From Lentisphaerota bacterium (GTDB lineage Bacteria > Verrucomicrobiota > Kiritimatiellia > UBA8416 > VGWJ01): a DNA stretch of 64,000 bases. Positions 1-36,899 of this stretch are shown here, in pieces. The notes under the pieces were generated by a model. That model saw only the letters and a list, made by a program, of their open reading frames with translations, was not told where the DNA came from and ran no database searches. A program made the translations under genes and the position numbers. The stretch covers positions 197 through 64,196 of the forward strand of contig VGWJ01000012.1 in assembly GCA_016873635.1 (NCBI GenBank), in the 5' to 3' direction. The number at the start of each line of letters is the position of its first letter. Within the stretch, counting starts at the first letter, position 1.

Positions 1-405
1 GCGCTGCGGGCCGAAGCCGAGGAGTTGCGGCAGGCCATCGCGGCGGAAGGCAAGTTCGGCAGCGTGGAGCAGGTGCTCGGCTCCCTTCTGGACGACCTGT
101 CCGAGATCGAAACCGCGGCCGGCCCGCAGAAGCTCGACCGCGCCTACGTGGCTTTCCACCGCAACCAGGCGCGGCGCCTGGACGTAACGCAGCAGACCCT
201 GGAGCGCATCCGCTCGGCCATGCGCGCGCAGCGCGTCTCCCAGCGCTACGGGATCGGGAAGGTCAAACCGCCCAGCCCGAAGACGACGTGGATGATCATC
301 TACGTTGTGCTTGGTTTCCTGGGTCTGGTAAGTCTACTGTTCTTCGTCCGCTGGTACGGCAAGACCAAGGCCGAGCGGATGGAGGGCGCAGAAGAGGAGA
401 AATAG
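1..405 (+). CDS. Hypothetical protein, 5'-truncated by the window edge. It is soluble with a single C-terminal transmembrane tail anchor.
   Basis: The ORF is open from nt 1 in frame 1 and stops with TAG at 403-405. The C-terminal stretch TWMIIYVVLGFLGLVSLLFFVRW is one hydrophobic helix. It is not an ATP synthase a-subunit, which would have 5-6 TM helices. Confidence 0.4.
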   Translation, partial: ALRAEAEELRQAIAAEGKFGSVEQVLGSLLDDLSEIETAAGPQKLDRAYVAFHRNQARRLDVTQQTLERIRSAMRAQRVSQRYGIGKVKPPSPKTTWMIIYVVLGFLGLVSLLFFVRWYGKTKAERMEGAEEEK

Positions 406-411
406 CGGCGC

Positions 412-1896
412 ATGGCGCTGGCCCTGAAGATAGACGTGCTGAAGCTGATCGAGCACGGCGCCGTGGTCGAGATCCGCCAGGACGTGATCAACGTTCAGGG
501 CCTGACCAACTGCATGAACGGCCAGCTCGTGGAGATCGGCGAGAATGCCGGCCGCGGGGTGATCGTGGGTTATGTGCCCGACCACGTGCTGGTGCTGCTG
601 GTCAAGCAGACCGGGCCCATCAAGCCGGGCGACCGCGTGCGCTCCAGCATGGATGAATTCCGCGTGCCCGTGGGCGAGGCTTTCATCGGCCGCCGCGTCT
701 CGGCGCTGGCCGAGCCGACGGACGGCGGCCCGCCCATCCGCAAGACCGCCACCCAGCCCATCTTCGGCACCGCGCCTTCCGTGATGCAGCGCATTCCCCT
801 CACCGAGGTGCTCGAGACCGGCACGAAGATCATCGACATGATGAAGCCCGTGGGCAAGGGGCAGCGCATGCTGATCATCGGCGACCGCATGACCGGCAAG
901 ACCACGGTGGGCGTGGACGCGATGATCAACCAGCGCGGCAAGAACGTCATCTGCATCTACTGCTGCATCGGCAAGGCCGAGGCGGCGCTGAACCGCGTGC
1001 TGGAGGCCTTCGACGCGGGCCGCGTGTGGGAGTACGGGATCGTCGTGGCGGCCACGGCCTCGGACCCCATGGGCCAGCAGTACCTCGCGCCCTACGTGGC
1101 GGCCAGCCTGGGCGAGTACTTCATGAACGAGAAAGGCGCCGACGTGCTGGTGGTCTTCGACGATTTCACCAAGCACGCCTGGGCCTACCGGCAGATCTCG
1201 CTGCTGCTGGAGCGCGCGCCCGGACGGGACGCCTATCCCGGCGACATCTTCTACATCCATTCCCAGCTCGTGGAGCGCGCCTGCAAGCTCAACCACATCA
1301 AGGGCGGAGGCTCCATGACGCACCTGCCCATCGTGGAGACGCTGCAGGGCGACGTGGCCGGCTATATTCCGTCCAACAGCATCTCCATGACCGACGGCCA
1401 GATCTACATGAACTCCACGCTCTTCGGCGAAGGCTTCAAGCCGGCCATCGACATGGGCCTGTCGGTCTCGCGTATCGGCAACCGCGTGCAGTGGCCGGCC
1501 ATGAAGAAACTCACCGCGATGCTGCAGCTGCAGTTCGTGCGCTACAAGGAGCTGGAGAAGCTCACGCGCATCAAGGCGGGCGTGTCCGCCGACGTCGAGC
1601 AGCGTCTCAAGCGCGGCAAGGTCCTGGAAGAGGTGCTCAAGCAGGAGGCCAACGCGCCGGTGCCCATGGAGGACCAGGTAATCACGCTCTACGCGCTGCA
1701 GAAAGGCTTCCTGGACGGCGTGGAGCCCGCGGACGTGAAGGGGCGCCTGCGTGACCTGGTCGGGCAGGTGCGCCTGCATCGCCCCGACCTCATCGCCGCG
1801 CTGAACGCGCACAAGTCCCTGACGGAGCAGATCAAGGAGGGGTTGGATGAGCAGCTTGGCCGGCTCGCCGGTTCCGCTCTTCAAGATCAAGGTTGA
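412..1896 (+). CDS. atpA: F-type ATPase alpha subunit (paralog 1). The arginine finger is intact.
   Basis: Walker A is GDRMTGKT, and the alpha signatures PYAAASLGEYF and SMTDGQIYMNSTLFGEGFKPAIDMGLSVSRIG are present. The N-terminus is about 20 aa shorter than canonical alpha. The start ATG lies 6 nt after the upstream in-frame stop, so no N-terminal extension is possible. Confidence 0.85.
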   Translation: MALALKIDVLKLIEHGAVVEIRQDVINVQGLTNCMNGQLVEIGENAGRGVIVGYVPDHVLVLLVKQTGPIKPGDRVRSSMDEFRVPVGEAFIGRRVSALAEPTDGGPPIRKTATQPIFGTAPSVMQRIPLTEVLETGTKIIDMMKPVGKGQRMLIIGDRMTGKTTVGVDAMINQRGKNVICIYCCIGKAEAALNRVLEAFDAGRVWEYGIVVAATASDPMGQQYLAPYVAASLGEYFMNEKGADVLVVFDDFTKHAWAYRQISLLLERAPGRDAYPGDIFYIHSQLVERACKLNHIKGGGSMTHLPIVETLQGDVAGYIPSNSISMTDGQIYMNSTLFGEGFKPAIDMGLSVSRIGNRVQWPAMKKLTAMLQLQFVRYKELEKLTRIKAGVSADVEQRLKRGKVLEEVLKQEANAPVPMEDQVITLYALQKGFLDGVEPADVKGRLRDLVGQVRLHRPDLIAALNAHKSLTEQIKEGLDEQLGRLAGSALQDQG

Positions 1897-3328
1897 AGAG
1901 AAGGGCCGGATCAAAGACATCAAGGAGATCATCGTCCGCATCGACGGCCTGCCCACCTGCCTCAACGGCCAGATCGTGGAGATGGGGCCGGACGTCAAGG
2001 GCATCATCATGGGCTACGACAAGTCCGACGTCCTGGCCCTGGTGCTGGGCGACCCCGGCAAGCTTCGCATGGGCAAGGAAGTCTCGGGCGTCAGCGAGCC
2101 GTTCCGCATCCCGGTGGGGGACGGCTACCTGGGGCGCATGATCACCGCGCTGGGCGCGCGCTGCGACCGCGGGGAGGACGTGGAGCCGGACGACTACTAT
2201 CCGGTCTTCCGCGATTCGCCGCCCATAACCTGGCGCGCCCCCGTGGACGAATTCCTTCCCTCGGGCACGAAGATCATCGACGTGATGGTGCCCCTGGCCA
2301 AGGGGCAGCGGCAGCTGATCCTCGGCGACCGCATGACCGGCAAGACGGTCATCGCCCTGGACGCGATCATCAACCAGAAGGGCCGCGACATGGTCTGCAT
2401 CTACTGCTGCATAGGCAAGTCCGTGTCGGCCCTGGAAAAGGTCATGGCCACGCTGCACGACAGGGGCGCGCTGGAATACACCGTGGTCATGGTGGCCACG
2501 GACAACGCTCCCGTGGGCGAGCAGTTCATCGTGCCCTACGCCGCCGCGGCCATGGGGGAGTACTTCGCGGCCTCCGGCCGCGACGTGCTGACGGTCCTGG
2601 ACGATCTTACCAAGCACGCCTGGGCCTACCGTCAGCTTTCCCTGCTGCTCGAGCGCCCGCCCGGCCGCGAGGCCTATCCCGGCGACATCTTCTACGTGCA
2701 GACGCAGCTGATGGAGCGCGCCGGACGTTTCAACGAGGAGCACGGCGGCGGCTCCATCACCTTCCTGGGCATTGCCGAAACGCTGCAGGGCGACCTCACG
2801 GGGTATATTCCCTCCAACCTGGCGTCGATGTGCGACGGGCAGGTCTGCCTGAGCAGCGCCATCTTCGCCGAAGGGTTCCGGCCGGCAATCGACTTCGGGC
2901 TCTCGCTCTCGATCATCGGCGGACGCGTGCAGCCGCGGATCCTCAAGCAGCTGAGCGGCCGCCTGCGGGCGGAATACGCCCAGTACACGGAAGTGGCCAG
3001 CCTGAGCAAGCTGCAGTCGGGACTGTCGGGCGAGGCGGAGCGCGTGCTGAACCGCGGCCAGGCGATCATGTCGGTCCTCCAGCAGGGGCAGAACCGGCCG
3101 GTGGGGCTGGCCGAGGAGGTCCTGCTGCTCTTCGCGCTGAGCCGCGACATGCTCACGTCGCTGGCGGACGACGAGCGCGCGGCTTTCCGGCGGGACATTC
3201 CGGCTTTCGCGCAGAAGGCCGATCCCGGCCTGCTCAAGCGCATCGAGGCGGGCGGCGAGATGACCGCCGACATCGAGGCCGGGCTCGGCAAGCTGATGGC
3301 GGCCTACTTCAGCTCGCTGAAACAGTAG
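1847..3328 (+). CDS. F-type ATPase alpha subunit paralog 2. The conserved SVSR arginine is replaced, so it is likely non-catalytic or degenerate.
   Basis: It is a full-length alpha-like protein with GDRMTGKT and PYAAAAMGEYF. The conserved ...GLSVSRIG motif reads GLSLSIIG here, an R-to-I change at the arginine-finger position. It overlaps the upstream alpha gene by about 50 nt. Confidence 0.8.
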   Translation: MSSLAGSPVPLFKIKVEEKGRIKDIKEIIVRIDGLPTCLNGQIVEMGPDVKGIIMGYDKSDVLALVLGDPGKLRMGKEVSGVSEPFRIPVGDGYLGRMITALGARCDRGEDVEPDDYYPVFRDSPPITWRAPVDEFLPSGTKIIDVMVPLAKGQRQLILGDRMTGKTVIALDAIINQKGRDMVCIYCCIGKSVSALEKVMATLHDRGALEYTVVMVATDNAPVGEQFIVPYAAAAMGEYFAASGRDVLTVLDDLTKHAWAYRQLSLLLERPPGREAYPGDIFYVQTQLMERAGRFNEEHGGGSITFLGIAETLQGDLTGYIPSNLASMCDGQVCLSSAIFAEGFRPAIDFGLSLSIIGGRVQPRILKQLSGRLRAEYAQYTEVASLSKLQSGLSGEAERVLNRGQAIMSVLQQGQNRPVGLAEEVLLLFALSRDMLTSLADDERAAFRRDIPAFAQKADPGLLKRIEAGGEMTADIEAGLGKLMAAYFSSLKQ

Positions 3329-3389
3329 TGGAGGCCGCCGCGCCTGCCCGCCGAAGCCTCCGGGCGAAGGCGGGTTGCGGCACAGGGCA

Positions 3390-3617
3390 ATGAAAGTGAC
3401 GATTCTGAATCCGAAGCACGTGGTGTTCGACGGCGAGGCCGCGAGCGTCTTCCTGCCCGGCGACCAGGCCGAGTTCGAGCTGCTCGATTTTCACGCGCCG
3501 ATCGTGAGCCTGCTGCGGCCCGGCAAGGTGATTGTCGACTGGCGCAAGGCGATCCCGATCAAGCGGGGCATGGTCAAGTTCGATCACAATGAGTGCATGA
3601 TACTGGTGGAGGAGTAG
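3390..3617 (+). CDS. atpC: F-type ATPase epsilon subunit, short form (N-terminal beta-sandwich domain only).
   Basis: MKVTILNPKHVVFDGEAASVFLPGDQAEFELLDFHAPIVSLLRPGKVIV matches the epsilon N-terminal domain. The C-terminal helical hairpin is absent. The listed ORF begins at a TTG (3375), and the ATG at 3390 is preferred. Confidence 0.6.
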   Translation: MKVTILNPKHVVFDGEAASVFLPGDQAEFELLDFHAPIVSLLRPGKVIVDWRKAIPIKRGMVKFDHNECMILVEE

Positions 3618-3648
3618 GGGTCTGGACAGCTTTGTCATATTCCTTGTC

Positions 3649-3837
3649 ATGTTCGTGACGATCATCGGCCCCTCGGCCGTGATCGGCGCGATCGGTCATG
3701 CCAGCATCCGGGCGCTGGGCCGCAATCCCTCGGCGGCGCCCAAGATCCTGCAGGCCATGATCATCGCCCTGGTTTTCGCCGAGGCCATTGCCGTGATCGC
3801 GCTGTTGATACTTTTCCAGTTGTTCGGAAGGGGATAA
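3649..3837 (+). CDS. atpE: F-type ATPase c subunit (proteolipid). The start may be an upstream CTG at 3622.
   Basis: It has two hydrophobic helices joined by a polar loop (GRNPSAAPK), with the conserved carboxylate in helix 2 (VFAEAIAVIALL). There is no Q or E-S/T Na+-binding signature. Confidence 0.65.
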   Translation: MFVTIIGPSAVIGAIGHASIRALGRNPSAAPKILQAMIIALVFAEAIAVIALLILFQLFGRG

Positions 3838-3876
3838 GCGAAAGGTTTCGGCCATACTGAGAAAGGAACCGAGCTC

Positions 3877-4623
3877 ATGCAAGACACAGTCCGCATCCTG
3901 GTGCCCATCGCCGTGGCGCACGTGTTCGTGCTCGTGGCGACGATTATCGTCATCAAGCGGCTTCTGCTCAGCGACTCCCTCAACGCCGTCAACCGCCTGA
4001 AACAGGTCGAGGCCGAAGTGCGGCGCAAGGAGGAGACCGTCCGCCGCGACATCGAGGAGCACGAGAAGGATTTCGCCCGGAAGAAGCTGGCGGCCGAGGA
4101 GGAGCTCCAGCGGCACCGCGAGGAGCAGGAGAAGGAGCTGACGCGCACGCGGGACCAGATCACGGCCGAGGCGCGCAAGGAAGCCGAGAAGATCATCGAA
4201 CAGGCCAGGCGCAACGAGGACAAGTTCCGGAGGCAGATCGCGCAGGACATGGAGGAGAAGGCCGTGGAATACGCCGGCCAGGTCTGCCAGCTGGTCTTCA
4301 GCGAACGCATCAACGCGGAGCTCAACCGGCACTTCGTGGACGAGCTGCTGGCCGCGCTGGACGAACTGGACGCCGGAAGCATAACGGTGGACACGGCCAA
4401 TGCCGAGTTCGCTTCCAGCCATCCCCTGGCGCCCGACCAGCGCGAGCGTCTGGAGAAACTGCTGGCCGACAAGTTCGGAGCCCAGATCAAGGTCAAGGAG
4501 AGCGTGCGCGAGGCCCTGTTGGCCGGGCTCGTGTTCAAGCTGGGCAGCCTGGAGATCGACGGCAGCCTGCTGAACCGCTGCCGCGAGGCCGTGGCGGAGG
4601 TGAAGAAGACGGCGAGAGTATGA
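3877..4623 (+). CDS. atpFH: Fused ATP synthase b/delta subunit (peripheral stalk).
   Basis: It has an N-terminal TM helix and then a highly charged coiled coil (KEAEKIIEQARRNED) as in subunit b. The C-terminus (ALLAGLVFKLGSLEIDGSLLNRCRE) matches the delta/OSCP C-terminal IDGS motif. At 248 aa it is too short for a complete delta N-terminal domain. A good RBS precedes the ATG. Confidence 0.6.
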   Translation: MQDTVRILVPIAVAHVFVLVATIIVIKRLLLSDSLNAVNRLKQVEAEVRRKEETVRRDIEEHEKDFARKKLAAEEELQRHREEQEKELTRTRDQITAEARKEAEKIIEQARRNEDKFRRQIAQDMEEKAVEYAGQVCQLVFSERINAELNRHFVDELLAALDELDAGSITVDTANAEFASSHPLAPDQRERLEKLLADKFGAQIKVKESVREALLAGLVFKLGSLEIDGSLLNRCREAVAEVKKTARV

Positions 4624-4719
4624 CGGGGTTGCTTCGCCGCGCCGGACGCGAAACGGCGGGAAGGGAAGCGGCCCGCTTCCGCGGTTCATTGACGGAGCGC
4701 TCGCGCCGCCCGTGAAACC

Positions 4720-7037
<2,318 letters not shown>

Positions 7038-7142
7038 GGCCGGCTGCCGGCGCGGAGACGCCCGCGTCCGGCGACGCCGGGCGGGGCGCGCCGAAAACCG
7101 GACTCCGGAAGCCGATGTCTCCTTCCGGCGCGAGCGTGTGAG

Positions 7143-8780
7143 ATGCCGCAAGATCTTGCCAGGCGACTGATCCAGACGGGGCTGGTTTCCGAACAGCGCC
7201 TGCGCGAGGCGCAGGAGACGGCGCGCGCGGAGCGCCGCAGCCTGGCCGACGTGCTCGTTGAATCGGGAGCCGTGGCGGAGGCCGACCTGCTGCCCGAGGT
7301 CGCCCGCCTGCACGGGCTGGAGTTCGTGCGCCTGGCCTCGCTTGCCGTTGAAGACGGGGCGGTCAAGGCCGTGCCCGCCAAGCTGGCTTCCCACTACCGG
7401 GTGATGCCCGTGCGCCTCGAGGCCGGGACCCTTACCGTGGCCCTTGCCGATCCCCTGGACGCAAGCGCGGTCGAGGATATCGAGACCAACCTCGGCTACC
7501 GCGTGGAGCGCGTGCTGGCCTGCCGGGCCGACATCGACGAAGCCCTGCGCCGGCACTACGGGGTGGGCGCGGATACCGTGGAACGCATACTCGCCGACAC
7601 CCCCGAGCGCCAGACGGAACTGCTCCCGGAGGAGACGCAGGACCTGGAACGCATGGCCGAGGACGCCTCCGTGGTCAAGCTCGTCAACCAGATCATCCAC
7701 CAGGCGATCAGCGACCGGGCCACCGACATCCATTTCGAGGTCGCGCGCGGCGGCGTGGCGGTGAGGCGCCGCATCGACGGCGTGCTCTACGACATCAGCG
7801 TGCCGCGCAACATCCGCTACCTGTACCCGGCCATCGTCTCGCGCGTGAAGATGATGTCCTCGCTGGACATCGTGGAGCGGCGCCTGCCGCAGGACGGCCG
7901 CGCGCGCGTGAGCATGCGCGGGGCCAACTACGACCTGCGCGTGTCGATCGTGCCCTCGGTGCACGGCGAAGACGTGGTGCTGCGCATTCTGCCGGCCGCG
8001 ATGCTCTTCGACCTGGGCGACCTGGGCCTCAACGCGCGGCACCTGGGCATGCTGGAAGAGCTCATCGCGCGGCCGCACGGCATCATCGTGGTCACGGGAC
8101 CGACCGGCAGCGGCAAGAGCACGACCCTCTACGCCTGCCTCACGCGCCTGAACACGCGCGACCGCAAGATCATCACCATCGAAGACCCCGTGGAGTACGA
8201 GCTGGAAGGCATCACGCAGACCCAGGTGAACCCCGCCATCGGATTGACCTTCGCGCGCGCCCTGCGCAGCATGCTGCGTCACGATCCCGACGTCATGATG
8301 GTGGGCGAGGTGCGCGATGCCGAGACCGCGGAGATCGCCGTGCAGACGGCGATGACCGGCCACCTCGTGCTCACGACGCTGCACACCAACGACGCCGCCG
8401 GCGGGGCCGTACGCCTGACGGACATGGGGATCGAGCCCTACCTGATAACGTCCACCGTGATGGCCTTTACGGCCCAGCGCCTCGTCAGGGTCATATGCCG
8501 CCGCTGCCGCGAGGAGTACGCGCAGGACGGACGCACCCGCTACCGCGGCGCGGGCTGCCGGCACTGCAACGGCAGCGGGTTCCGCGGGCGGGTGGCGATC
8601 TGCGAATTCCTCCCCCTGACCCCCGAGATCCAGACGCTGATCCTGGCGCGCTCGTCCGCGAAGACCGTTCGCGAGAAGGCCGACGCGCTCGGAATGCCCA
8701 CGTTGGCCCAGGACGGGTGGGAAAAGGTCGAGCAGGGCATGACCACGGCCGAGGAAGTCATGCGCGTGACCACGCTGTGA
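7143..8780 (+). CDS. gspE: Type II secretion / type IV pilus assembly ATPase (GspE/PilB family).
   Basis: It has an N-terminal GspE-N/MshEN-like domain, Walker A GPTGSGKST, the tetracysteine CRRC...CRHC motif, and Asp- and His-box regions. Confidence 0.85.
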   Translation: MPQDLARRLIQTGLVSEQRLREAQETARAERRSLADVLVESGAVAEADLLPEVARLHGLEFVRLASLAVEDGAVKAVPAKLASHYRVMPVRLEAGTLTVALADPLDASAVEDIETNLGYRVERVLACRADIDEALRRHYGVGADTVERILADTPERQTELLPEETQDLERMAEDASVVKLVNQIIHQAISDRATDIHFEVARGGVAVRRRIDGVLYDISVPRNIRYLYPAIVSRVKMMSSLDIVERRLPQDGRARVSMRGANYDLRVSIVPSVHGEDVVLRILPAAMLFDLGDLGLNARHLGMLEELIARPHGIIVVTGPTGSGKSTTLYACLTRLNTRDRKIITIEDPVEYELEGITQTQVNPAIGLTFARALRSMLRHDPDVMMVGEVRDAETAEIAVQTAMTGHLVLTTLHTNDAAGGAVRLTDMGIEPYLITSTVMAFTAQRLVRVICRRCREEYAQDGRTRYRGAGCRHCNGSGFRGRVAICEFLPLTPEIQTLILARSSAKTVREKADALGMPTLAQDGWEKVEQGMTTAEEVMRVTTL

Positions 8781-8859
8781 GGAGGGGGCGCGTGCGCCCT
8801 CCTTCGCGCGAGGCGCTTCGGAGGGCAAGCCGGACCCGCCGGGAGAAAGTGACCGGACC

Positions 8860-10068
8860 ATGCCGAGGTACCTATACAAGGCCAAGGCCGGTCCTGACCG
8901 GACCATGGAAGGGACGGTCGAGGCCGCGACGCGGGCGGAGGCCGTCGCCCGCGTTGACGCCATGGGCTACAGCCCCATCAGCGTCCGCGAAGCCGTCGAA
9001 GAAGGCGCCGGCGCGCGCCGGCGCGCGGTCTGGCGCCGCATTTCCGCGGGCAGCATCACCGTCTTCACCCGCCAACTGGCGAGCCTCATCCGTTCCGGCG
9101 TTCCGATACTGAGGGCGCTGAACACGATTCGCGCGCAGACCGGGAATCCCCGCCTGCGCGCGGTGGTCGAGGACCTGGGAACGGTCATCCGCGACGGCGG
9201 CATGCTTTCCGACGCCATGGGCCGCCATCCCAGGCTCTTTCCGCGGCTGTACGTCAGCATGGTGCGCGCCGGGGAGTCGGGCGGCGCGCTGGACACGGTG
9301 CTGTTCCGCCTTGCCGACGCGCGCGAGAAGGAGGAGGACTTGCGGCGCCGCGTGCAGGCGGCGGCCGCGTATCCCGCGCTGGTGGCCGCGGTCGGGGCGA
9401 TCACGATCTTCGTGCTGCTGTCGTTCTTCCTGCCGAGGGTGGCGGCGCTGTTCCGCGATTACAGGGACCTGCCGCTTCCCACGCGCGTGCTCATCGGCGC
9501 GAGCGATTTCTTTTCGGCCCACTGGTACTGGCTGCTGCTCGCGGCGGGGCTGACGGCGGCGGTCTTCCGGCGCGTGGCGGCCATGGAGAAGGGCCGCGCG
9601 CTCGTGGACGCGCTGAAGCTCCGCCTGCCCGTGATCGGCGTGTTCCTGCGGGACGCGGACATCGCGCGTTTCGCGCGCACCCTGTCGCTCCTGATCGAGG
9701 CGGGTCTGCCCATCGACCGCGCCCTGGAACTCAGCGGCGAGACCGTGCGCAACGCGGTGCTCAAGGAGGTCGTGGAAAACGTCCGGCGCGACGCGATCAG
9801 GCAGGGCGTGCCGCTTTCCGTCGGATTGCAGCGCCACCGCGATTTTCCGCTCTTTGTGGCCAACATGGTGGGCGTGGGCGAGGAGTCCGGCCGTCTCGAG
9901 GATTCCCTGTCGGAAGTAGCCGCGTTCTACGAGAAGCAGGTCGACCAGAAGAGCCGGCTGGCGGCGAGCCTCGTGGAGCCGGCGCTGATCCTGGTCGTGG
10001 GCGCGCTGGTCGGGTTCATCGTCTTCGCCATGCTCCTTCCCATCTTCAAGCTGGGCGGCCTGCTCTGA
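8860..10068 (+). CDS. gspF: Type II secretion / type IV pilus platform protein (GspF/PilC family).
   Basis: It has a duplicated GspF domain with three TM segments, about 400 aa, and lies directly downstream of gspE. Confidence 0.85.
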   Translation: MPRYLYKAKAGPDRTMEGTVEAATRAEAVARVDAMGYSPISVREAVEEGAGARRRAVWRRISAGSITVFTRQLASLIRSGVPILRALNTIRAQTGNPRLRAVVEDLGTVIRDGGMLSDAMGRHPRLFPRLYVSMVRAGESGGALDTVLFRLADAREKEEDLRRRVQAAAAYPALVAAVGAITIFVLLSFFLPRVAALFRDYRDLPLPTRVLIGASDFFSAHWYWLLLAAGLTAAVFRRVAAMEKGRALVDALKLRLPVIGVFLRDADIARFARTLSLLIEAGLPIDRALELSGETVRNAVLKEVVENVRRDAIRQGVPLSVGLQRHRDFPLFVANMVGVGEESGRLEDSLSEVAAFYEKQVDQKSRLAASLVEPALILVVGALVGFIVFAMLLPIFKLGGLL

Positions 10069-10148
10069 GGCGCGGGCGGGACGGGGCGGGGACCGACGCC
10101 TTCGCCGGGCGGCTCCGGCGAGCCCGGCCGGGCCCGCCCGGACGGGTC

Positions 10149-10976
10149 ATGCACATGAAGGTGCGCGCGAAAAAGAGCGTCGGCCGCGGAGCCGCGGCCC
10201 GCCTGCGGCCGCGGCTCGCGCTGCTCGCCGCACTCCTCGCCCGCGTTGCCGCGGCCGAAGACTGGTCCGTCCACGGCGAGAAACACTTCATTATTCACTA
10301 TGCGGGCGCGGACGGCTTCGCGCGGGAGGTGGGCCGCCGCGCCGAGCAGTACTATGACACCATCACGCGCGACCTGGGCATCAGTCGCCGCGCCGATTTC
10401 TGGCTCTGGAACGACCGCGTTCGCCTCTACATCTATCCCACGCGCGCGGAATTCGTCGCCGCCGCCGCGGCGCCGGCCTGGGCCGGCGCGAAGACGGACT
10501 ATGACGCGCGCGAGGTCCGCACGTTCCAGGACAGCCCGTCGTTTCTGGACACGCTCCTCCCGCACGAGCTGGCGCACCTGGTGTTCCGCGATTTCGTCGG
10601 CACCGGCGGCCACATTCCCCTCTGGCTGGACGAAGGCGTGGCGCAGTGGGAGGAGCGGTCCGGCCGGGAGGAGGCGGAGAGCCGCGCGCGGCTCCTGCTC
10701 CGGCAGGGCCGCCTGCTGCCGCTGGAACGGCTCATGCTTGCCGACGTGCGCGAGGGCGCGGGCGGCGGCGAGGCCGAGGCGTTCTACGCCCAGGCCCGCA
10801 GCATCGTGGCTTACCTGATCGAAGAACACGGCCCCGAACGATTCCGGCGCCTGTGCGGCCAGTTGCGCGAGGGCAAGACATTTGAGCAGGCTTTGCGATT
10901 TACCTACGGGGACAGAATTGATAGCATGGCCGCGCTGGAGTCGCAGTGGCGCAAGTACGTGGAGGAATCGCAATGA
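10149..10976 (+). CDS. Secreted HExxH (gluzincin-like) metallopeptidase-family protein embedded in the T2SS operon.
   Basis: There is an N-terminal signal peptide (RLALLAALLARVAAA). The HELAH motif is followed about 20 aa later by WLDEGVAQWEE, a candidate third zinc ligand. It sits between gspF and gspG. Confidence 0.5.
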   Translation: MHMKVRAKKSVGRGAAARLRPRLALLAALLARVAAAEDWSVHGEKHFIIHYAGADGFAREVGRRAEQYYDTITRDLGISRRADFWLWNDRVRLYIYPTRAEFVAAAAAPAWAGAKTDYDAREVRTFQDSPSFLDTLLPHELAHLVFRDFVGTGGHIPLWLDEGVAQWEERSGREEAESRARLLLRQGRLLPLERLMLADVREGAGGGEAEAFYAQARSIVAYLIEEHGPERFRRLCGQLREGKTFEQALRFTYGDRIDSMAALESQWRKYVEESQ

Positions 10977-11488
10977 GAACGCCCCATACCCGCATCGGAA
11001 ACCGTCAGTCGCGGCGCAACAGCCGAGGCGCCCCGCGGCCCCCGGGCGCGGGCGGACGCGCGGGCGGCGGCTGTCCGGCCAACCCCTCGCCCGCCTCCGG
11101 TTTCACGCTGATCGAGCTGATGGTCGTGGTGATCATCATCGCGGCGCTGGCCGGCATGGTGCTGCCGCGCGTCCTGCCGGCGACCGATGAGGCCAAGAGC
11201 AACATCGCCCTGGGCGACATCGCGGGCATCACGCTGGCCCTGAAGATGTACCGGTTGCACAACGACCGTTTTCCTTCCACGGAGGAAGGGCTCGACGCCC
11301 TGATGGCGGCCCCTTCCACGGCCCGCAACTGGAAGGGCCCCTACCTGGAGAAGAAGGCCCGCGACCCGTGGAAACGCCCCTACAACTACCGCTATCCGGG
11401 CAGTCACAACCCGCACGGTTTCGACATCTGGTCGCTGGGCCCCAGCGAGGAAGACGCCGGCGACGATGTGACCAACTGGGGGGAATGA
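10973..11488 (+). CDS. gspG: Major pseudopilin (GspG family) with an unusually long leader.
   Basis: It has the prepilin processing motif G|FTLIELMVVVIIIAALAG and the GspG core (ALKMYRLHNDRFPSTEEGLDAL...WKGPY...DPWKRPYNYRYPG). Its ATG overlaps the upstream stop (ATGA). Confidence 0.75.
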   Translation: MRTPHTRIGNRQSRRNSRGAPRPPGAGGRAGGGCPANPSPASGFTLIELMVVVIIIAALAGMVLPRVLPATDEAKSNIALGDIAGITLALKMYRLHNDRFPSTEEGLDALMAAPSTARNWKGPYLEKKARDPWKRPYNYRYPGSHNPHGFDIWSLGPSEEDAGDDVTNWGE

Positions 11489-11641
11489 GAGTCCGCGCCG
11501 GCGTGTTCTCCGGAGCCTGAAAGGCGAAGGAGGAAGCGCGGACCGCAAACGCGTTGTCTGCGGCGGCTTGCGTATTGCCCGAAGGAGAAGACGCGTATGC
11601 AGCGCCGGCTCCAGCCGGTCCCGGACAAGGCAGGAGCGAGA

Positions 11642-12079
11642 ATGAAGACCGGATCTCATCCCCGTCCCCGTTCCTCCTCCGCCTTCACGCTCATTGAAAT
11701 CCTCGTCACCGTCGTGATCCTTTCCGTGGGCATCGTGGCTGTGTTGAGCGCCTTCAACCAGGCCGTCGCGGCGCTGGGCGCCTCGAGCGAAGCGCTGGCC
11801 GCCGATCGCCTGATCACCGAACGCATGGACGCGCTGCGCGAGGCCGCTCTCGAAGCGGGCGACCCCCTGGGCAGGCGGTCTTCCGGCACGCTCAGCCTGC
11901 CGGCGGGCGTATACCGCTGGGAGGCCGAACTGACGCTCCTGAAGGAACTGCCTGAAATCCGGCGGGACGACGAGCCGCTGAAGGAAGCGGTCTACGAGGC
12001 GCGCGTGTCCGTCCGGCGCGAGGGGTCCGACAACGAACACGCCGCCGCGACGTACCTTCGCGCCGCCGGAGCACGGTGA
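11642..12079 (+). CDS. Minor pseudopilin (GspI-like).
   Basis: It has the AFTLIEILVTVVILSVG N-methylation/TM motif and is small. An AGGAG RBS precedes the ATG at 11642. Confidence 0.55.
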   Translation: MKTGSHPRPRSSSAFTLIEILVTVVILSVGIVAVLSAFNQAVAALGASSEALAADRLITERMDALREAALEAGDPLGRRSSGTLSLPAGVYRWEAELTLLKELPEIRRDDEPLKEAVYEARVSVRREGSDNEHAAATYLRAAGAR

Positions 12080-12097
12080 TTGGGCGAGGAGGCAGGG

Positions 12098-12796
12098 ATG
12101 ACGAGGATGGAGGGTCGCCCTCCGCGGCGACCGGGAACGCACGGCATGAAGACGGCATCTTTCCGATGGCGATCGAACGTCCCGGCCCATGCTCCCTCCG
12201 CCTTCACCCTGATCGAAATGCTCATCGTCACCGCGATTCTCGGCGTGGTCATTGCCGCGATCGTGGCCTGTCTGGCCGGCGGCCTGCGCGTGTGGGAATC
12301 GGCGCGACGCTTTGACAAGGTTGAGACCGAAGCGATGTTCGCCCTGGCCGCGGTGCAGAAGGACGTGATGAACGCCATACCTTTCTATGCCCTGCCTTTT
12401 CGCGGAAGCCCGGACGGAATGGCGTTTCCGTGCCTCGTGTCGGTCCTGTCGGGAGAGGGCGGGGAGGAGGTTGCCGTCGGGACCGCGGCCTATCGTCTGG
12501 ACTACGGGCGCGGCCGGCTCATCCGGCGGGCCTGGGCGTTTCCGCGGCCGGAGCCTCCCGAGCAGAACGCGGAGACGGTGGCCGGGCGCGTGCGCAACGC
12601 GCGGCTCTGGTATGCGCCGGATCCCGCGGACCGGACGGCGTCGGGCGGCGCCCAATGGCAGGACATCTGGCAGGACGCTTCGAATCTCCCGCGGCGCGTC
12701 AGGATTGATCTTGGGCTGGACGACGAAGGCGAGACGCGCACGTTCAGCCGCACGTTCGTGATTCCCGTTGTTCGCCCGGGGCAGGGCGGGGGGTAG
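12098..12796 (+). CDS. Minor pseudopilin (GspJ/GspH-like).
   Basis: It has the AFTLIEMLIVTAILGVVIAA prepilin motif. A GAGGAGG RBS lies 6 nt before the ATG at 12098. Confidence 0.55.
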   Translation: MTRMEGRPPRRPGTHGMKTASFRWRSNVPAHAPSAFTLIEMLIVTAILGVVIAAIVACLAGGLRVWESARRFDKVETEAMFALAAVQKDVMNAIPFYALPFRGSPDGMAFPCLVSVLSGEGGEEVAVGTAAYRLDYGRGRLIRRAWAFPRPEPPEQNAETVAGRVRNARLWYAPDPADRTASGGAQWQDIWQDASNLPRRVRIDLGLDDEGETRTFSRTFVIPVVRPGQGGG

Positions 12797-12945
12797 GGAG
12801 GGGAGTCTGTGGGTGCGTGGGTCTGTGAGTGTGCGAGTGCGGGAGTGTGCGGGTACGCGCGGGGAAGAGCCCGGATCCCTTCCCCTGCCCAACCACCCGC
12901 TCACACACCCAGACACCCACACACTCCCACAACTCCCCTGCGCGC
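12797..12945. repeat. GT-rich then CA-rich low-complexity inverted segment (alternating purine/pyrimidine, Z-DNA or slippage-prone).
   Basis: GGGAGGGGAGTCTGTGGGTGCGTGGGTCTGTGAGTGTGCGAGTGCGGGAGTGTGCGGG is followed by CCCTTCCCCTGCCCAACCACCCGCTCACACACCCAGACACCCACACACTCCC, at the gspJ/gspK junction. Confidence 0.35.
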
Positions 12946-13918
12946 CAGCGCGCTCATTCTCGCCCTGTGGACGCTCTTCTTCCTGGCCACGCTGGCGTTG
13001 GCGGTGGGCGCGTACGTGGGCGCCAACGTGGAGCTGGCGCGCCGCTTCAGCGCCGACACGGCGGCCTACGCCCTGGCGCGCGCGGCGATTGAGAAGGGCA
13101 TCATGCTGGCCGCGGCGGATACCAACGCCTGGGACGCCGCGGGCGAGCCCTGGCATTCCGAGGCGGAGTTCCGCGACGTGTCCCTGGGCGCCGGGACGTA
13201 CAGCGTTCTCACGGTGTCGCCTCTTCCGGACGGGGGTACGGCGACCAACTACGGCCTCTTCGACCAGGAGCGCCTTGTCAATATCAACACGGCGGACGCC
13301 GGCCTGCTGGCAGCCCTGTTCGAGGTGGGCGCGGGCGCGGAACGGTCGCGGGCGGAGGATCTGGCCGCGGCCGTCATTGACTGGCGCGATGCGGATGATG
13401 GCATGTTGACAGGAGGCGCCGAGGATGAATACTATCGTCGCTTGAGCCCGCCGTACCATTGTCACGACGGGCCGTTCGGAAGCATGCACGAAGTGCGGCT
13501 CGTGAAGGGCGTGGACGAGGAGCTTTTCCGCGGCATACGGGGTCTGGCGACGGTCCACGGCACGGGCAAGGTGAACGTCAACACCGCGCCGCTGCCGGTG
13601 CTGCTGGTTCTGGCCGCGGCGCAGGGCGGGTCGCGTCCCGTCGCCTCGTCGCTGGCCGCCAAGATCGTGCGGTTCCGCGAGGCCGGGAACGCGTTCCAGG
13701 TGCCGTCGCTCACGGAGATGGCGGGCCAGCTGAACGCGTTCAGCACGCTCTCGGGAGAAGAGGCGGACCTGCTGGCCAGGATGGCGCGGCGCTACATGGG
13801 CCTGGACGCGACGTGTTTTTCCGGCACGGCCCGCGGCGCGGCGGCGGGCGGCGAGCGGCTGATCGATTTTGTCTTTGACCGTCGCGACAGGGCATTGCTC
13901 TACTGGTACGAGCGGTAG
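12809..13918 (+). CDS. gspK: Minor pseudopilin GspK-like. The true start is uncertain, because the listed N-terminus runs through a GT/CA low-complexity tract.
   Basis: It has a GspK-like N-terminal segment (RASALILALWTLFFLATLALAVG) and the GSMHEVRLVKGV and GKVNVNTAP helix-hairpin-helix motifs typical of GspK. Confidence 0.6.
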   Translation: MGAWVCECASAGVCGYARGRARIPSPAQPPAHTPRHPHTPTTPLRASALILALWTLFFLATLALAVGAYVGANVELARRFSADTAAYALARAAIEKGIMLAAADTNAWDAAGEPWHSEAEFRDVSLGAGTYSVLTVSPLPDGGTATNYGLFDQERLVNINTADAGLLAALFEVGAGAERSRAEDLAAAVIDWRDADDGMLTGGAEDEYYRRLSPPYHCHDGPFGSMHEVRLVKGVDEELFRGIRGLATVHGTGKVNVNTAPLPVLLVLAAAQGGSRPVASSLAAKIVRFREAGNAFQVPSLTEMAGQLNAFSTLSGEEADLLARMARRYMGLDATCFSGTARGAAAGGERLIDFVFDRRDRALLYWYER

Positions 13919-13922
13919 CGAT

Positions 13923-15377
13923 ATGAGCGGGAGTTCCAGCGGTTCGGTGGTCGTTGTCGAGATAAGCAACGACTGGCTCAAGATCGCCCAGGCCGTGCCG
14001 CAGCGCGGCGGCGTGGCCCTCGCCAAGCTGCATCTGCAGCGTTTCGAAACGCTTGACGGATCCCTGGCCGGCGCCGTGTCCGCGGCCTTTGACCGCCTCG
14101 GCATCCCGCGCTCCGGCGTGGTGGCCTGTCTGCCGCGGCAGGTCGTGAACGTGCGCATGCTCGAGCTGCCTTCGACGGATCCGTCCGAGATCGCCGACAT
14201 GGTCGAGCTGCAGGCCGGCAAACAGACGCCTTACTCCCGCGACGAAATCGTCTCCGACTACCGGATCGTGGGTTCGCGCCGCGAGGGCTACAGCCGGATC
14301 GTGCTGGCCATCGTGCAGCGCAGCGCGCTGCGCCAGCGCTTCAGCATTCTTGAAGAAGCGGGCCTCGACGTGGATACGATGTCGGTGAGCTCGGAGGGCC
14401 TTCTGAACTGGCTGCGCGCCGTGGCGCCCGCGGAAGGCACGCGGGCCGTGCTGGACGTGGACTCCTACTTCTCGGACCTGTCGGTGGTGTCCGGCGGGCA
14501 GCTTCTTTTCACGCGCGGCATTCTGGTGGGCGCGAACCAGCTGGTGGACGACGCGGACCGCTGGAGCGGCAAGCTGGTTGACGAGATCAGGCGTTCGCTG
14601 GACGCCTTCCGCGGCGAGGCGCCGGGCAGTCCGCTTTCCGGCCTCATCGTGACCGGCGCCGCCGCGGCCGTGGACGGTCTTGGGGCGCGGCTCGGCGAAG
14701 CCCTGGGCATGGAAGTCGGCACGATGGATTCCCTGCGCGTCGCGGCCCGGCGCCCGGCCGAACCCGCGCTGGGCGAAGGGGATTTCCGGCGCGTTTCGCT
14801 CACGGCCCTGATCGGGATGGCGCTGGCCCCGGGCCGGCTGCAGCTCAACCTGGTTCCGGACTCCGTGCGCATGCGCAAGGGACTGGCGCTGAAAGCGCGC
14901 AGCCTGGCGACGCTGGGCATCCTGCTGATGAGCGCGCTTGTGGCGGCGTCGCTGCTGGCCAACGTGCGCATTTTCATGCTGCGCGAGCGCCTGGCGGGCA
15001 TCCGGCGCGAGTACGCGCGCACCGCGCCGGCCGCGGCCGAGGTGGAGAGCATGCGGCAGATGGTGGACCTGATCAGGGAGCGGCAGGACAAGCGCCTGGC
15101 GGCGGTGGCCGTCCTGAACGCGATCCACGCCGGCGTGCCGGAGAACGTGCTGCTGGACCAGGTGAGCCTCGAGCGCGGCGGACCGGAAGCGGACTCCGCG
15201 GGAACGGCGGTCGTGGAAGGCACCGCGGCCCAGAGGCGGGATATCAGCCGGCTGATCAAGAACCTGGAAAGCGCGGCGGAGTTCCGCGACGTCCGCGAAG
15301 GCGGCAGCACCGCCGCCGACAGCCGGACGCAGCGCTACCGGTTCCGGATCGTCTGCGCGATGGAGAACGAACCGTGA
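13923..15377 (+). CDS. Fused PilM-like actin-fold domain and PilN/GspL-like membrane domain (an inner-membrane assembly-platform component).
   Basis: The N-terminal ~330 aa resemble a PilM/GspL cytoplasmic domain (VVVVEISNDWLKIAQA...). One TM helix (LATLGILLMSALVAASLLANV) is followed by a PilN-like periplasmic region. Confidence 0.55.
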   Translation: MSGSSSGSVVVVEISNDWLKIAQAVPQRGGVALAKLHLQRFETLDGSLAGAVSAAFDRLGIPRSGVVACLPRQVVNVRMLELPSTDPSEIADMVELQAGKQTPYSRDEIVSDYRIVGSRREGYSRIVLAIVQRSALRQRFSILEEAGLDVDTMSVSSEGLLNWLRAVAPAEGTRAVLDVDSYFSDLSVVSGGQLLFTRGILVGANQLVDDADRWSGKLVDEIRRSLDAFRGEAPGSPLSGLIVTGAAAAVDGLGARLGEALGMEVGTMDSLRVAARRPAEPALGEGDFRRVSLTALIGMALAPGRLQLNLVPDSVRMRKGLALKARSLATLGILLMSALVAASLLANVRIFMLRERLAGIRREYARTAPAAAEVESMRQMVDLIRERQDKRLAAVAVLNAIHAGVPENVLLDQVSLERGGPEADSAGTAVVEGTAAQRRDISRLIKNLESAAEFRDVREGGSTAADSRTQRYRFRIVCAMENEP

Positions 15378-15928: not shown

Positions 15929-16113
15929 ATGGCCGCGCCGACGCGTTCGCCGGAGCTCGAAGGGCGCAGGGGAGAGCGCGGACCATGAACGCGCGCTGAC
16001 GCGGGGCGCAGCGCTTCCGCGCCGCGTCGGCGCGGGCGTGCGGCGCCGGCTTCAAGCGGTCCAAAGAGAGCGTGACGCGCGTGAGAACGACAACGGATCC
16101 GACAGTCTCCGGC

Positions 16114-17325
16114 ATGGACGCTCCGGTGGAGCGTCGTCTTGCGGCGGAGCGCGGGCGCACGAGCCGCGCGCTGTTCTGGCTGGGCGCCGTCTTCTTCCTT
16201 GTTCTGCTGCTGTCGCTGGCCGTCTTCATGGCCGTCAGCTTCTTCGCGCTGCGCAACGCGGCGGAAACGCGCCGGATCGCGTATGAAACCGACGCCCGGA
16301 CGGCCGCCTTTGCCTCGGACATCATCGGGGCGCAGGCGCGCGCCGACAAGGTGGAGGCGGACCAGCTCAACATGCGCGAAGCCCTCGATGAGACGCGCGG
16401 CGACGTGAAGCGCGAAGGCGAACAGTGGCGCATGGAGGTCGCGAAATTGCGCGAGCTGTTCGAATCCAGGCGCGAAACCGAGGGCAGCGCGATAGCCGGC
16501 ATGGCCACCGGGATCAAGGTGCTGGCCGACGGCGCCGCGGCGCGGGACGCGGCGCTGGCCGCCCTCGCGGACGAGGTGCAGGGACTGGCGACGGCCCTTC
16601 TGGCGCGGGCGGAGACGGCGCCCGCCGGGGCGCCCGCCGGGCCGGACGCGGCCGCGGCGGCTCAGCCGCCGGCCGCGCGCCGATCGCCGGGAGAAGCGGT
16701 CGTGACGGAGGACGCGCCGGAGCCGGCCGCGGCCGACGCCGGCGAAGAGGAGATCCGGGAAGTGGCCGTCATGACGTTCCCGAACGGCGACCGCTACGAG
16801 GGCGAGTTCGAAGACGGTCTTTTCAACGGCGAGGGGACCTACTACTACGCCAACGGCGACCGCTACGACGGCGAGTTTCGCGACGACATGAAGCACGGCC
16901 GCGGCATCTTGAAGTTCGCCAACGGCGACCAGTACAACGGCGAGTTCGCCAACGACCGGATGAACGGCGCGGGCACGATGATCTACGCCAGCCGCAACAA
17001 GTACGTGGGCGAATTCCGCAACGGCATGCGGCACGGCCGGGGTGTGCTCACTTTTCCCAACGGCGACCGCTACGAGGGGGAATTCCAGGACGACGTCCGG
17101 CAGGGCCGGGGCACGTACTCTTTCTCGGACGGCTCCGTGTATGCGGGCGAATTCAAGAACGGCCGGCGGGACGGCAAAGGCCGCTACGTCTATCCCGACG
17201 GCTCCGTCTACGACGGCGAATTCAAGGACGGGCGGAAGCACGGCTACGCCGAGTGCATCTATCCCGGAGGAGAGCTGATCAAGGGCTACTGGGCTGACGA
17301 CCGCTTCGAACGCGCGGCCGAGTGA
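16114..17325 (+). CDS. Membrane-anchored MORN-repeat protein.
   Basis: It has an N-terminal TM, a coiled coil and an Ala/Pro-rich linker. Eight or more MORN repeats follow (YEGEF.DG...G.G; for example FPNGDRYEGEFEDGLFNGEGTYYYANGDRYDGEF). Confidence 0.7.
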   Translation: MDAPVERRLAAERGRTSRALFWLGAVFFLVLLLSLAVFMAVSFFALRNAAETRRIAYETDARTAAFASDIIGAQARADKVEADQLNMREALDETRGDVKREGEQWRMEVAKLRELFESRRETEGSAIAGMATGIKVLADGAAARDAALAALADEVQGLATALLARAETAPAGAPAGPDAAAAAQPPAARRSPGEAVVTEDAPEPAAADAGEEEIREVAVMTFPNGDRYEGEFEDGLFNGEGTYYYANGDRYDGEFRDDMKHGRGILKFANGDQYNGEFANDRMNGAGTMIYASRNKYVGEFRNGMRHGRGVLTFPNGDRYEGEFQDDVRQGRGTYSFSDGSVYAGEFKNGRRDGKGRYVYPDGSVYDGEFKDGRKHGYAECIYPGGELIKGYWADDRFERAAE

Positions 17326-17454: not shown

Positions 17455-17622
17455 ATTCTCGTCAATTACAGATCGCATTGCCGGTGAGAGGTGTGCGACC
17501 GGATCGAATAACAGCGGGGCGGGGTGAGACGGTCTTGTGTGCCACTGTCTTGCGGCTTGGCATGTCCCGCTATTTCTGATATTGCTACGCAACTACCAAC
17601 AACACAAACCGGAGTGGAGGTT

Positions 17623-18906: not shown

Positions 18907-18932
18907 CACGTTACAGCAGGAGGACGGTTGCC

Positions 18933-19934: not shown

Positions 19935-19969
19935 CCAGACATAACACCAAAGACAAGGAGGGGTTTCCT

Positions 19970-36851: not shown

Positions 36852-36899
36852 CGCGGTTGCCGGCCGTCAACAACCGCCAAGCGCCGGCCGCCAGTGCTC

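Follow-up and report, generated by a model that had tools for sequence, protein, structure and literature searches.

The alpha subunits of canonical F1-ATPases (AtpA) carry an arginine finger (alphaR376 in Escherichia coli, alphaR373 in the bovine enzyme), and every F1, V1 or A1 head characterised so far has, to our knowledge, three equivalent catalytic interfaces, which form the basis of the binding-change mechanism. Here we analysed a stretch of 64,000 nucleotides of contig VGWJ01000012.1 from a Lentisphaerota bacterium (hereafter referred to as the window), which encodes an F1-like ATPase with two alpha paralogs in tandem. The second of these, alpha' (1847-3328, forward strand), resembles canonical AtpA in its three-domain fold, its P-loop, the lack of a catalytic glutamate and in being encoded alongside homologues of beta, gamma, epsilon, c and b/delta. 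It differs from AtpA by an isoleucine in place of the finger, a lysine at the position of Q200 and a shortened delta-binding N-terminal helix. The operon as a whole departs from the canonical atp operon in having a second alpha gene and only half an epsilon, and in lacking subunit a and a separate delta.

Among the described systems, the F1-like X0 complexes of Mycoplasma (Type 2, the gliding twin motor of M. mobile; Type 3, required for antibody cleavage by MIB-MIP) offer an analogy in synteny, as their F1 alpha/beta/gamma(/epsilon) homologues no longer serve ATP synthesis and are encoded next to components of a cell-surface apparatus. One of the Type 3 proteins is exported and has transmembrane helices at its C-terminus (PMC12994834); it is resembled by X437, the protein encoded directly upstream of alpha in the window. 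Moreover, Gli-alpha of M. mobile has a lysine at the Q200 position, which was taken as confirming a non-hydrolysing site (bioRxiv 10.1101/2024.06.11.597861) and which is shared with both alphas described here. Unlike the present locus, which retains c and a peripheral stalk, the Mycoplasma systems have one finger-bearing alpha, no c and no peripheral stalk (bioRxiv 10.1101/2024.06.11.597861). The partner genes differ as well, those found here being of the type II secretion system (T2SS) and type IV pilus (T4P) kind in an uncultured bacterium of the Planctomycetes-Verrucomicrobia-Chlamydiae (PVC) group, which is represented only by metagenome-assembled genomes with the labels Lentisphaerae/Kiritimatiellia. 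Scores against the glide_MMOB1660/1670 and MSC_0618/0619 models were all far under the cut-offs (362-378 vs 600, 416 vs 850, 272-288 vs 520 and 388 vs 570 bits). Judged by these scores, the complex belongs to neither of the two Mycoplasma families, Type 2 and Type 3, and the resemblance is conceptual.

The N-ATPase (atpDCQRBEFAG) is likewise a second, divergent F-type gene set with a long b and no separate delta, and the best NCBIfam match of the b/delta protein from the window is N-ATPase b. However, subunit a, AtpQ and AtpR are all part of the N-ATPase, which has only one alpha, whereas no genes for AtpQ, AtpR or subunit a were found in the operon studied here. The alt_F1F0 models all scored far below their cut-offs, for instance with alpha' (476 vs 750 bits), beta (507 vs 752), b (45 vs 225) and gamma (22 vs 282), and by this measure the complex is not an N-ATPase. 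A precedent for an F/V-ATPase-derived module in envelope secretion is provided by the ATPase complex of type III secretion and flagellar export (FliH-FliI-FliJ), the stalk protein of which is related to b and delta. In contrast to the complex described here, FliI is a homohexamer without an alpha/beta split and without a c-ring, and the FliI and SctN models gave 130-185 bits at cut-offs of about 600. By analogy, the nearest functional counterpart of a mixed alpha/alpha' head is the hybrid F1 made in the laboratory, in which the arginine is also removed from the beta site, namely F1 of the thermophilic Bacillus PS3 with finger-to-alanine mutations and hybrids with one or two mutant subunits. 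Unlike in these engineered enzymes, the change in alpha' is natural, ancient, fixed and located on a separate gene, and it is accompanied by I346A, T349C, P328G and I330A.

In the literature searched, which covered few subscription journals, no two-alpha F-ATPase, finger-less alpha or T2SS-linked F-ATPase is described, and targeted look-ups in PMC6668835, PMC10656485, PMC7356697 and PMC9324843 yielded no account of alpha' or its cluster. Neither NCBIfam (June 2026) nor Pfam holds a dedicated model for them.

Isoleucine replaces the arginine finger in alpha'

The alpha' gene is an intact open reading frame (ORF) of 493 amino acids with one stop codon, at its end. Residues 13-486 match F1 alpha chains in a phmmer search of all PDB chains (E ~1e-119), and the protein is 33-41% identical to solved alpha chains. 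The Pfam domains ATP-synt_ab and ATP-synt_ab_C were detected with E-values of 5.5e-70 and 1.5e-22, respectively. The P-loop GDRMTGKT is intact (amino acids 160-167, nucleotides 2324-2347), and the pattern RPPGREAYP found in alpha' is common to all alphas. An AlphaFold2 (AF2) model with a predicted template modelling score (pTM) of 0.83 had F1 alpha chains as its best Foldseek matches (template modelling score, TM, 0.84-0.87). Alpha and alpha' share 45% identity with each other and about 40% with canonical alphas. With 469.8 bits, alpha' remains narrowly below the cut-off of the atpA equivalog model TIGR00962 (484.45 bits), and it reached 496.4 bits against NF009884, the cut-off of which is 554.

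An earlier note on this DNA, made from the sequence alone, had stated that alpha keeps the motif GLSVSRIG with the arginine equivalent to R376 and that alpha' reads GLSLSIIG at the same site. Both statements were borne out by our analysis. The arginine of the SVSR motif is residue 376 of E. coli atpA (NC_000913.3) by direct count, and the corresponding column of a MAFFT alignment of 250 sequences holds arginine in alpha and isoleucine in alpha'. The phmmer alignments pair 'glslsiigg' of alpha' with 'glsvsrvgg' of solved alpha chains, in agreement with the alignment to the E. coli protein, and the exchange from arginine to isoleucine falls exactly on the finger column. In alpha, the motif comprises amino acids 349-356 (nucleotides 1456-1479) and Arg354 is encoded by CGT (1471-1473); in alpha', it comprises amino acids 351-358 (nucleotides 2897-2920) and Ile356 is encoded by ATC (2912-2914). 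A minimum of two base changes separates the two codons.

Neither paralog has a carboxylate at the site equivalent to Glu181 of beta, which is Gln200 in canonical alphas. Both have a lysine there, located at approximately amino acids 197-200 in alpha (CIGK) and 187-191 in alpha' (CIGKS). Relatives with the type B gene order (see below) or with a single alpha have an arginine at this position.

By fold and sequence, alpha' is a member of the F1 alpha family minus the arginine finger. Combined with the evidence for selection given below, it is a selected and intact alpha, predicted to bind nucleotide, that is unable to donate the arginine.

Conservation, selection and ancestry of alpha'

A search of 5.8 billion proteins yielded 120 close relatives of alpha' (64-100% identity) and 120 of alpha. 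When the sequences from the window are included, the finger position is occupied by isoleucine in 121 of 121 alpha' sequences and by arginine in 121 of 121 alpha sequences. The source names given for the alpha' relatives are metagenome-assembled genomes (MAGs) of Lentisphaerae, Kiritimatiellia/Kiritimatiellae or Verrucomicrobia(ota). Arginine was present in the finger column of 142 of the 150 best representatives of clusters formed at 50% identity. Among these 150, full-length alpha' is represented by one cluster (P0241), next to two alpha'-like fragments, and the P0244 fragment has a threonine. Using the gamma protein as query, we also retrieved 80 further related metagenomic loci, in which the finger residue of alpha' is isoleucine with the exception of two valines and two threonines, and is never arginine. 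The loss of the arginine is conserved in all orthologues examined, and alpha', with 45% identity to alpha, is an old paralog.

Ratios of non-synonymous to synonymous substitution rates (dN/dS) were determined according to Nei and Gojobori, using only genome pairs with unsaturated dS. Comparisons of the window with its nearest fetched relatives were saturated or unreliable, and closer pairs among the fetched loci were used instead. The ratios obtained were 0.057-0.111 for alpha', 0.017-0.063 for alpha, 0.010-0.083 for beta and 0.031-0.101 for gamma. Judged by these values, alpha' evolves faster than alpha, yet it is clearly under purifying selection. Furthermore, 88 columns are invariant among 47 diverse alpha' orthologues, including the glycine and lysine of the P-loop and the Walker B aspartates; the P-loop threonine is invariant as well. 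The most divergent alpha' was found in locus L089 (4089-5580; 52% identity, threonine at the finger position), where it is annotated as two separate genes, 84 and 414 amino acids long. This may reflect a frameshift or assembly error, or a truly split gene.

The ancestry of alpha' was analysed with a neighbour-joining tree with 100 bootstraps, which is distance-based only. All members of the family form a clade of their own against canonical alphas (100), the alpha' sequences group together in 96 of 100 bootstraps, and the alphas of a single-alpha lineage (L160, L161, L163 and L167) nest with those of an alpha'-bearing lineage (100). This topology suggests that the duplication was a single, old event and that alpha' was lost again at least once. 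Alpha and alpha' are located between b/delta and gamma in type B loci and ahead of epsilon in type A loci. On this pattern, the duplication is older than the change in gene order between the two types. Locus L141 (1-1453) encodes an arginine-bearing alpha directly followed by epsilon, which corresponds to the type A order without alpha', and looks like a second loss of alpha'.

Further residues specific for alpha'

Besides the finger, several other positions distinguish alpha'. Together with R376I, the changes T349C, I346A (window and consensus), P328G, I330A, H294Q, S295T, A228D and G160A (E. coli numbering) are fixed in alpha', and neither alpha nor canonical sequences have them. S347 and G351 belong to what we take, from E. 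coli uncA mutants, to be a loop of the catalytic interface; I346A and T349C lie inside this loop and flank S347. As these loop changes are fixed, it seems that the alpha' interface was remodelled and then frozen, and that it is not drifting.

The N-terminal crown (positions 1-100) is better conserved in alpha' than in alpha, with a per-site entropy of 0.55-0.77 compared to 0.85-1.02 bits. Arginine or lysine is conserved in alpha' but not in alpha at six positions, four of which (22, 28, 32 and 81) belong to the crown. The other two (40 and 394) are occupied by arginine or lysine in canonical alphas, too, and therefore represent retentions in alpha' rather than gains. Among the six positions, no alpha'-specific basic residue that could compensate for the lost arginine was found near the catalytic site or the interface. 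Both paralogs share family-specific lysines or arginines at the positions of Q200, A380, S35, E96, N207 and Q408.

Arrangement of the alpha and alpha' genes

The alpha gene (412-1896, forward strand) encodes 494 amino acids with both Pfam domains, ATP-synt_ab and ATP-synt_ab_C, and exceeds the TIGR00962 cut-off with 507.1 bits. In all 37 non-redundant loci with both paralogs, alpha directly precedes alpha'. Ten loci contain alpha' alone, and each of these (10/10) is truncated by the contig end, either within alpha' or shortly before it. The overlap between the two genes amounts to 50 nucleotides in the window and approximately 40-50 nucleotides in general, and is also present in L004 and L006. 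A Shine-Dalgarno-like sequence (AAGGAGG, 1832-1838, forward strand) lies within the coding region of alpha, 8 nucleotides before the ATG of alpha', and no promoter-like signal was found between alpha and alpha'. The two genes are probably translationally coupled. If this is the case, the overlap and the internal Shine-Dalgarno sequence would lead to joint synthesis of alpha and alpha'.

Composition of the ATPase operon

The genes in the window are arranged in the order X437, alpha, alpha', epsilon, c, b/delta fusion, gamma and beta, all on the forward strand. Epsilon (3375-3617) comprises the N-terminal beta-sandwich only, as ATP-synt_DE_N matches residues 6-79 of its 80 amino acids. Across 50 unique orthologues it has a length of 75-80 amino acids and the C-terminal helical domain is absent. 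It consequently lacks the helical hairpin that inhibits canonical bacterial F1, and some relatives have a short charged tail. Subunit c (3649-3837; Pfam ATP-synt_C) has 62 amino acids by this start and 71 in relatives. Its motif FAEAIAV bears the membrane carboxylate, which is a glutamate in 43 of 45 unique orthologues. In the c subunits of L118 and L120, the carboxylate is changed to methionine and a nearby leucine to glutamine.

The b/delta fusion (3877-4623; 248 amino acids; Pfam OSCP) consists of an N-terminal transmembrane helix, a coiled coil and a delta/OSCP-like C-terminal domain. Its NCBIfam matches to b, delta and N-ATPase b are weak and below cut-off. It is followed by a divergent gamma (4720-5628; 302 amino acids; Pfam ATP-synt, E 8.7e-25) and by beta (5625-7037), which passes the atpD model TIGR01039 with 549 bits at a cut-off of 463. 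In comparison to E. coli AtpD, beta keeps the full catalytic set, namely K155, T156, E181, R182, E185, D242, R246 and Y331. Its DELSEED motif, part of the loop by which canonical F1 pushes gamma, reads DELSKAD and is short of two acidic residues. Five subunits scored far below their family cut-offs, namely gamma (TIGR01146, 66 vs 194 bits), epsilon (43.5 vs 67), c (20 vs 44), delta (31.5 vs 57.5) and b (16 vs 65.5).

No ORF of the operon had a Pfam match to subunit a (PF00119). We therefore turned to a hidden Markov model (HMM) based on E. coli AtpB and 53 homologues from canonical loci. This model had no match at E<=1 within 92 related loci (the first 25 kb of the window and 91 others), whereas it matched 53 of 78 canonical atp loci, none of which extended more than 10 kb from the alpha gene in either direction. 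The 39 kb that make up the rest of the window contain housekeeping genes (among them gyrAB, EF-G, EF-P, Obg and UvrD), and a further ATPase was not found there. X437 was considered as a divergent subunit a and rejected, having a single C-terminal helix and being mostly periplasmic. An ORF of locus L009 (57-731), which is not hydrophobic and contains a repeated DNA element, was rejected as well.

With no subunit a and five subunits under cut-off, the complex as encoded here is not a canonical F1Fo. The earlier note did not cover this context and tacitly assumed a normal ATP synthase. The missing subunit a, the truncated epsilon, the b/delta fusion, X437 and the neighbouring Gsp genes speak against this assumption, and the operon probably does not encode an ordinary ATP synthase.

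Of the X437 gene, the window contains the last 135 codons (1-405, forward strand), the gene start being located upstream. The full gene is available in L001 (3392-4705), which is derived from the same contig, and encodes 437 amino acids. The protein has a signal peptide, two repeats of a beta-sandwich plus helical bundle and a C-terminal transmembrane helix (AF2, predicted local distance difference test, pLDDT, 84). It has no significant Pfam family and no PDB match at E<=1e-3 with Foldseek, and all 26 of its 26 homologues are unnamed or hypothetical in the source records. The single-alpha loci L163 and L167 contain two tandem copies of X437 upstream of epsilon, while alpha'-bearing loci contain one.

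Neighbouring secretion and pilus genes

The ATPase genes are framed by constant neighbours. Wherever a locus extends 1.5 kb or more upstream, the first ATPase gene is directly preceded by X437 (30 of 30). On the other side, beta is followed immediately by GspE in 41 of the 42 non-redundant loci with at least 1.5 kb of sequence beyond beta, with gaps of 12-390 bp, and is found about 2 kb further downstream in the 42nd. The gap between beta and GspE in the window contains no terminator-like site.

GspE marks the beginning of a T2SS/T4P-like cluster (7143-15377, forward strand), which was annotated with Pfam using the L001 equivalents and, from 12080 onwards, the ORFs of the window. It comprises GspE with an MshEN domain (7143-8780), GspF (8860-10068), Peptidase_MA_2 (10149-10976), GspG (10946-11488), a pseudopilin (11597-12079), a GspJ-like protein (12080-12796), GspK (12809-13918) and a PilM-PilN fusion (13869-15377). 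Pfam annotation recognised neither a secretin nor a prepilin peptidase in the cluster. The region after PilM-PilN (16072-17325, 17524-19934 and 19931-20752) encodes a MORN-repeat protein, two proteins without Pfam match (460 and 349 amino acids) and a PEP-CTERM protein.

The ATPase and the secretion or pilus genes are arranged in this way in loci of the types A, B and C and in members of two phyla. The two-alpha arrangement occurs in MAGs labelled Kiritimatiellia, Lentisphaerae or Verrucomicrobiota. L009, a single-alpha locus from an Omnitrophota MAG, contains b/delta, alpha, gamma, beta, two MshEN proteins, GspE, GspF, Peptidase_MA_2 and GspG, and in L090 the genes for epsilon, c, b/delta, alpha, gamma and beta are followed by GspE, PilZ, GspF and onward genes. 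Positions 1-15377 of the window and the loci L001-L009 and L089-L170 hence look like a conserved super-operon that spans two phyla. As adjacency is kept at this depth and with small gaps, it suggests that the ATPase and the secretion or pilus genes form one functional unit.

Possible roles of alpha' and of the complex

On balance, we lean towards co-assembly of alpha' with alpha and beta into an F1-like head that is asymmetric and in which the one or two interfaces facing alpha' would be slowed. A place in the ring is suggested by the synthesis of alpha' together with alpha and beta and by the retention of its beta-contacting surfaces. In an alpha/alpha'/beta3 head, alpha' would stand in for alpha at one or two out of three positions. 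A beta site that faces alpha' would bind nucleotide and hydrolyse it orders of magnitude more slowly, which would render the head intrinsically asymmetric. Upon mutation of the finger to alanine, rotation is 10^3- to 10^4-fold slower and torque is reduced by about 50%, yet rotation persists (PMC5380711). The earlier note was right that the finger is gone, but the term catalytically dead, which it had used for the affected interfaces, is overstated, as mutant rotation is slowed and not abolished. Its idea of a heteromeric or regulatory alpha' that arose after duplication is still the most economical reading of a conserved, old paralog; that both alphas share one hexamer is what we infer. Since the crown of alpha' is unusually conserved and unusually basic, alpha' may mark a unique position that touches the b/delta peripheral stalk or another partner, and the disabled site would thereby be fixed relative to the stator. 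To an ion pump or synthase that runs freely, such a site would be disadvantageous. It could, however, serve a device that holds a position, performs a limited stroke or is gated by a partner, and the context of the operon changes the possible purpose of a disabled interface.

Several observations weigh against a mixed head. Clusters with a single, arginine-bearing alpha exist in L161, L163, L167, L090, L009 and apparently L141, so alpha' is dispensable for the basic machine and would be an add-on. The gene arrangement hints that the two alphas are made in equal amounts, yet three positions cannot be filled at a 1:1 ratio. The C-terminal domain is less conserved (per-site entropy) and faster-evolving in alpha' than in alpha, and both paralogs bear a family-specific arginine or lysine four residues past the finger (E. 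coli position 380). Instead of mixing, the two alphas could form alternative heads, either alpha3beta3 or a near-inactive alpha'3beta3, on a shared gamma, c and b/delta, with alpha' acting as a switch or parking form. Identical beta subunits indeed provide no intrinsic rule for mixing, the single-alpha lineages show that alpha3beta3 is viable, and alpha' appears to retain all features for binding beta and nucleotide. We nevertheless regard this as unlikely, because the overlapping, co-oriented genes with an internal ribosome-binding site and no promoter-like signal between them favour simultaneous synthesis, and the conserved crown surface specific to alpha' better fits a position-specific role. 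It is even less probable that the interface is still active by means of another basic residue, such as the arginine or lysine at position 380, and that alpha' is divergent but competent. Every alpha' sequence (120 of 120) contains this residue, which corresponds to an alanine or serine in canonical alphas, and F1 catalysis is unexpectedly robust to point mutations (PMC5380711). Yet the residue is equally found in the finger-bearing alpha and thus offers no compensation specific to alpha', and the basic residues that alpha' gained are confined to the N-terminal crown. Moreover, we know of no F1, natural or engineered, that works at a normal rate without the finger arginine. That alpha' is a decaying duplicate or incipient pseudogene could be suspected from the loss of a key catalytic residue, from a non-synonymous rate about 3-4 times that of alpha in three of the four genome pairs in which both were measured with dS near or below 1, and from the alpha' called in two pieces in L089. 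We exclude this reading as highly improbable, given the full-length intact ORF here and in more than 120 orthologues, dN/dS ratios of 0.06-0.11, the invariant columns, the predicted fold and an N-terminal domain that is better conserved than that of alpha; the frameshift that the earlier note had named as a sign of pseudogenisation is absent from the uninterrupted ORF. The probability left by these readings falls to roles of alpha' outside the ring.

A separate question, which we also judged separately from the readings of the ring, is whether the operon encodes a housekeeping F1Fo synthase, with subunit a encoded elsewhere, a synteny without functional meaning and an alpha' that tunes an ion-driven enzyme. 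Alpha and beta pass the NCBI atpA and atpD equivalog cut-offs, the conserved carboxylate of c suggests ion binding, and split atp operons occur in other bacteria. We consider a housekeeping synthase possible but rather doubtful, given the failure of the subunit a profile in every related locus examined as opposed to its success in most canonical ones, the scores of gamma, epsilon, c, b and delta far under the family cut-offs, and the two lineages with methionine in place of the c carboxylate. Furthermore, X437 upstream and GspE downstream are nearly constant, with gaps down to 12-30 bp, and this arrangement holds over the gene-order types A, B and C and two phyla. A more far-reaching and less probable reading would be a rotary device of a kind not described before, with a head of three different subunits (alpha, alpha' and beta), a gamma/epsilon/c rotor and a b/delta stalk but without subunit a. 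Rather than acting as an ion-coupled synthase, it would be the ATP-driven mechanical part of a T2SS/T4P-like envelope machine that includes X437. In such a device, the interface between alpha' and beta would provide a built-in asymmetry, for instance a resting angle, a brake or a limited stroke.

If a mixed head exists, it would be the first F1 found in nature whose three catalytic sites are not all equivalent, and a natural version of the hybrid F1 experiments, which could be used to probe what is gained from broken symmetry. If the link to the secretion or pilus genes is functional, this would be the third time that an F1 was independently recruited to such a machine, the other two being the Mycoplasma cases. 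The class of surface-machine F1-like complexes, so far known from Mycoplasma only, would then be extended to Kiritimatiellia, Lentisphaerae and Verrucomicrobiota of the PVC group and to Omnitrophota MAGs. There may also be consequences for annotation, as the public names of these proteins, 'F0F1 ATP synthase subunit alpha' and 'F-type H+-transporting ATPase', may lead metabolic reconstructions to credit their hosts with an ATP synthase that does not exist.

Other observations

In L009, a repeated DNA element is located in the two regions 57-731 and 6369-6719. The same string, SGIW[F/L]LESSGIWLLVSGY, is encoded in two probably spurious ORFs, which flank the ATPase genes. In the distal part of the window, an ORF of 229 codons without Pfam match (36894-37583) has an extreme first-position GC content of 0.93.

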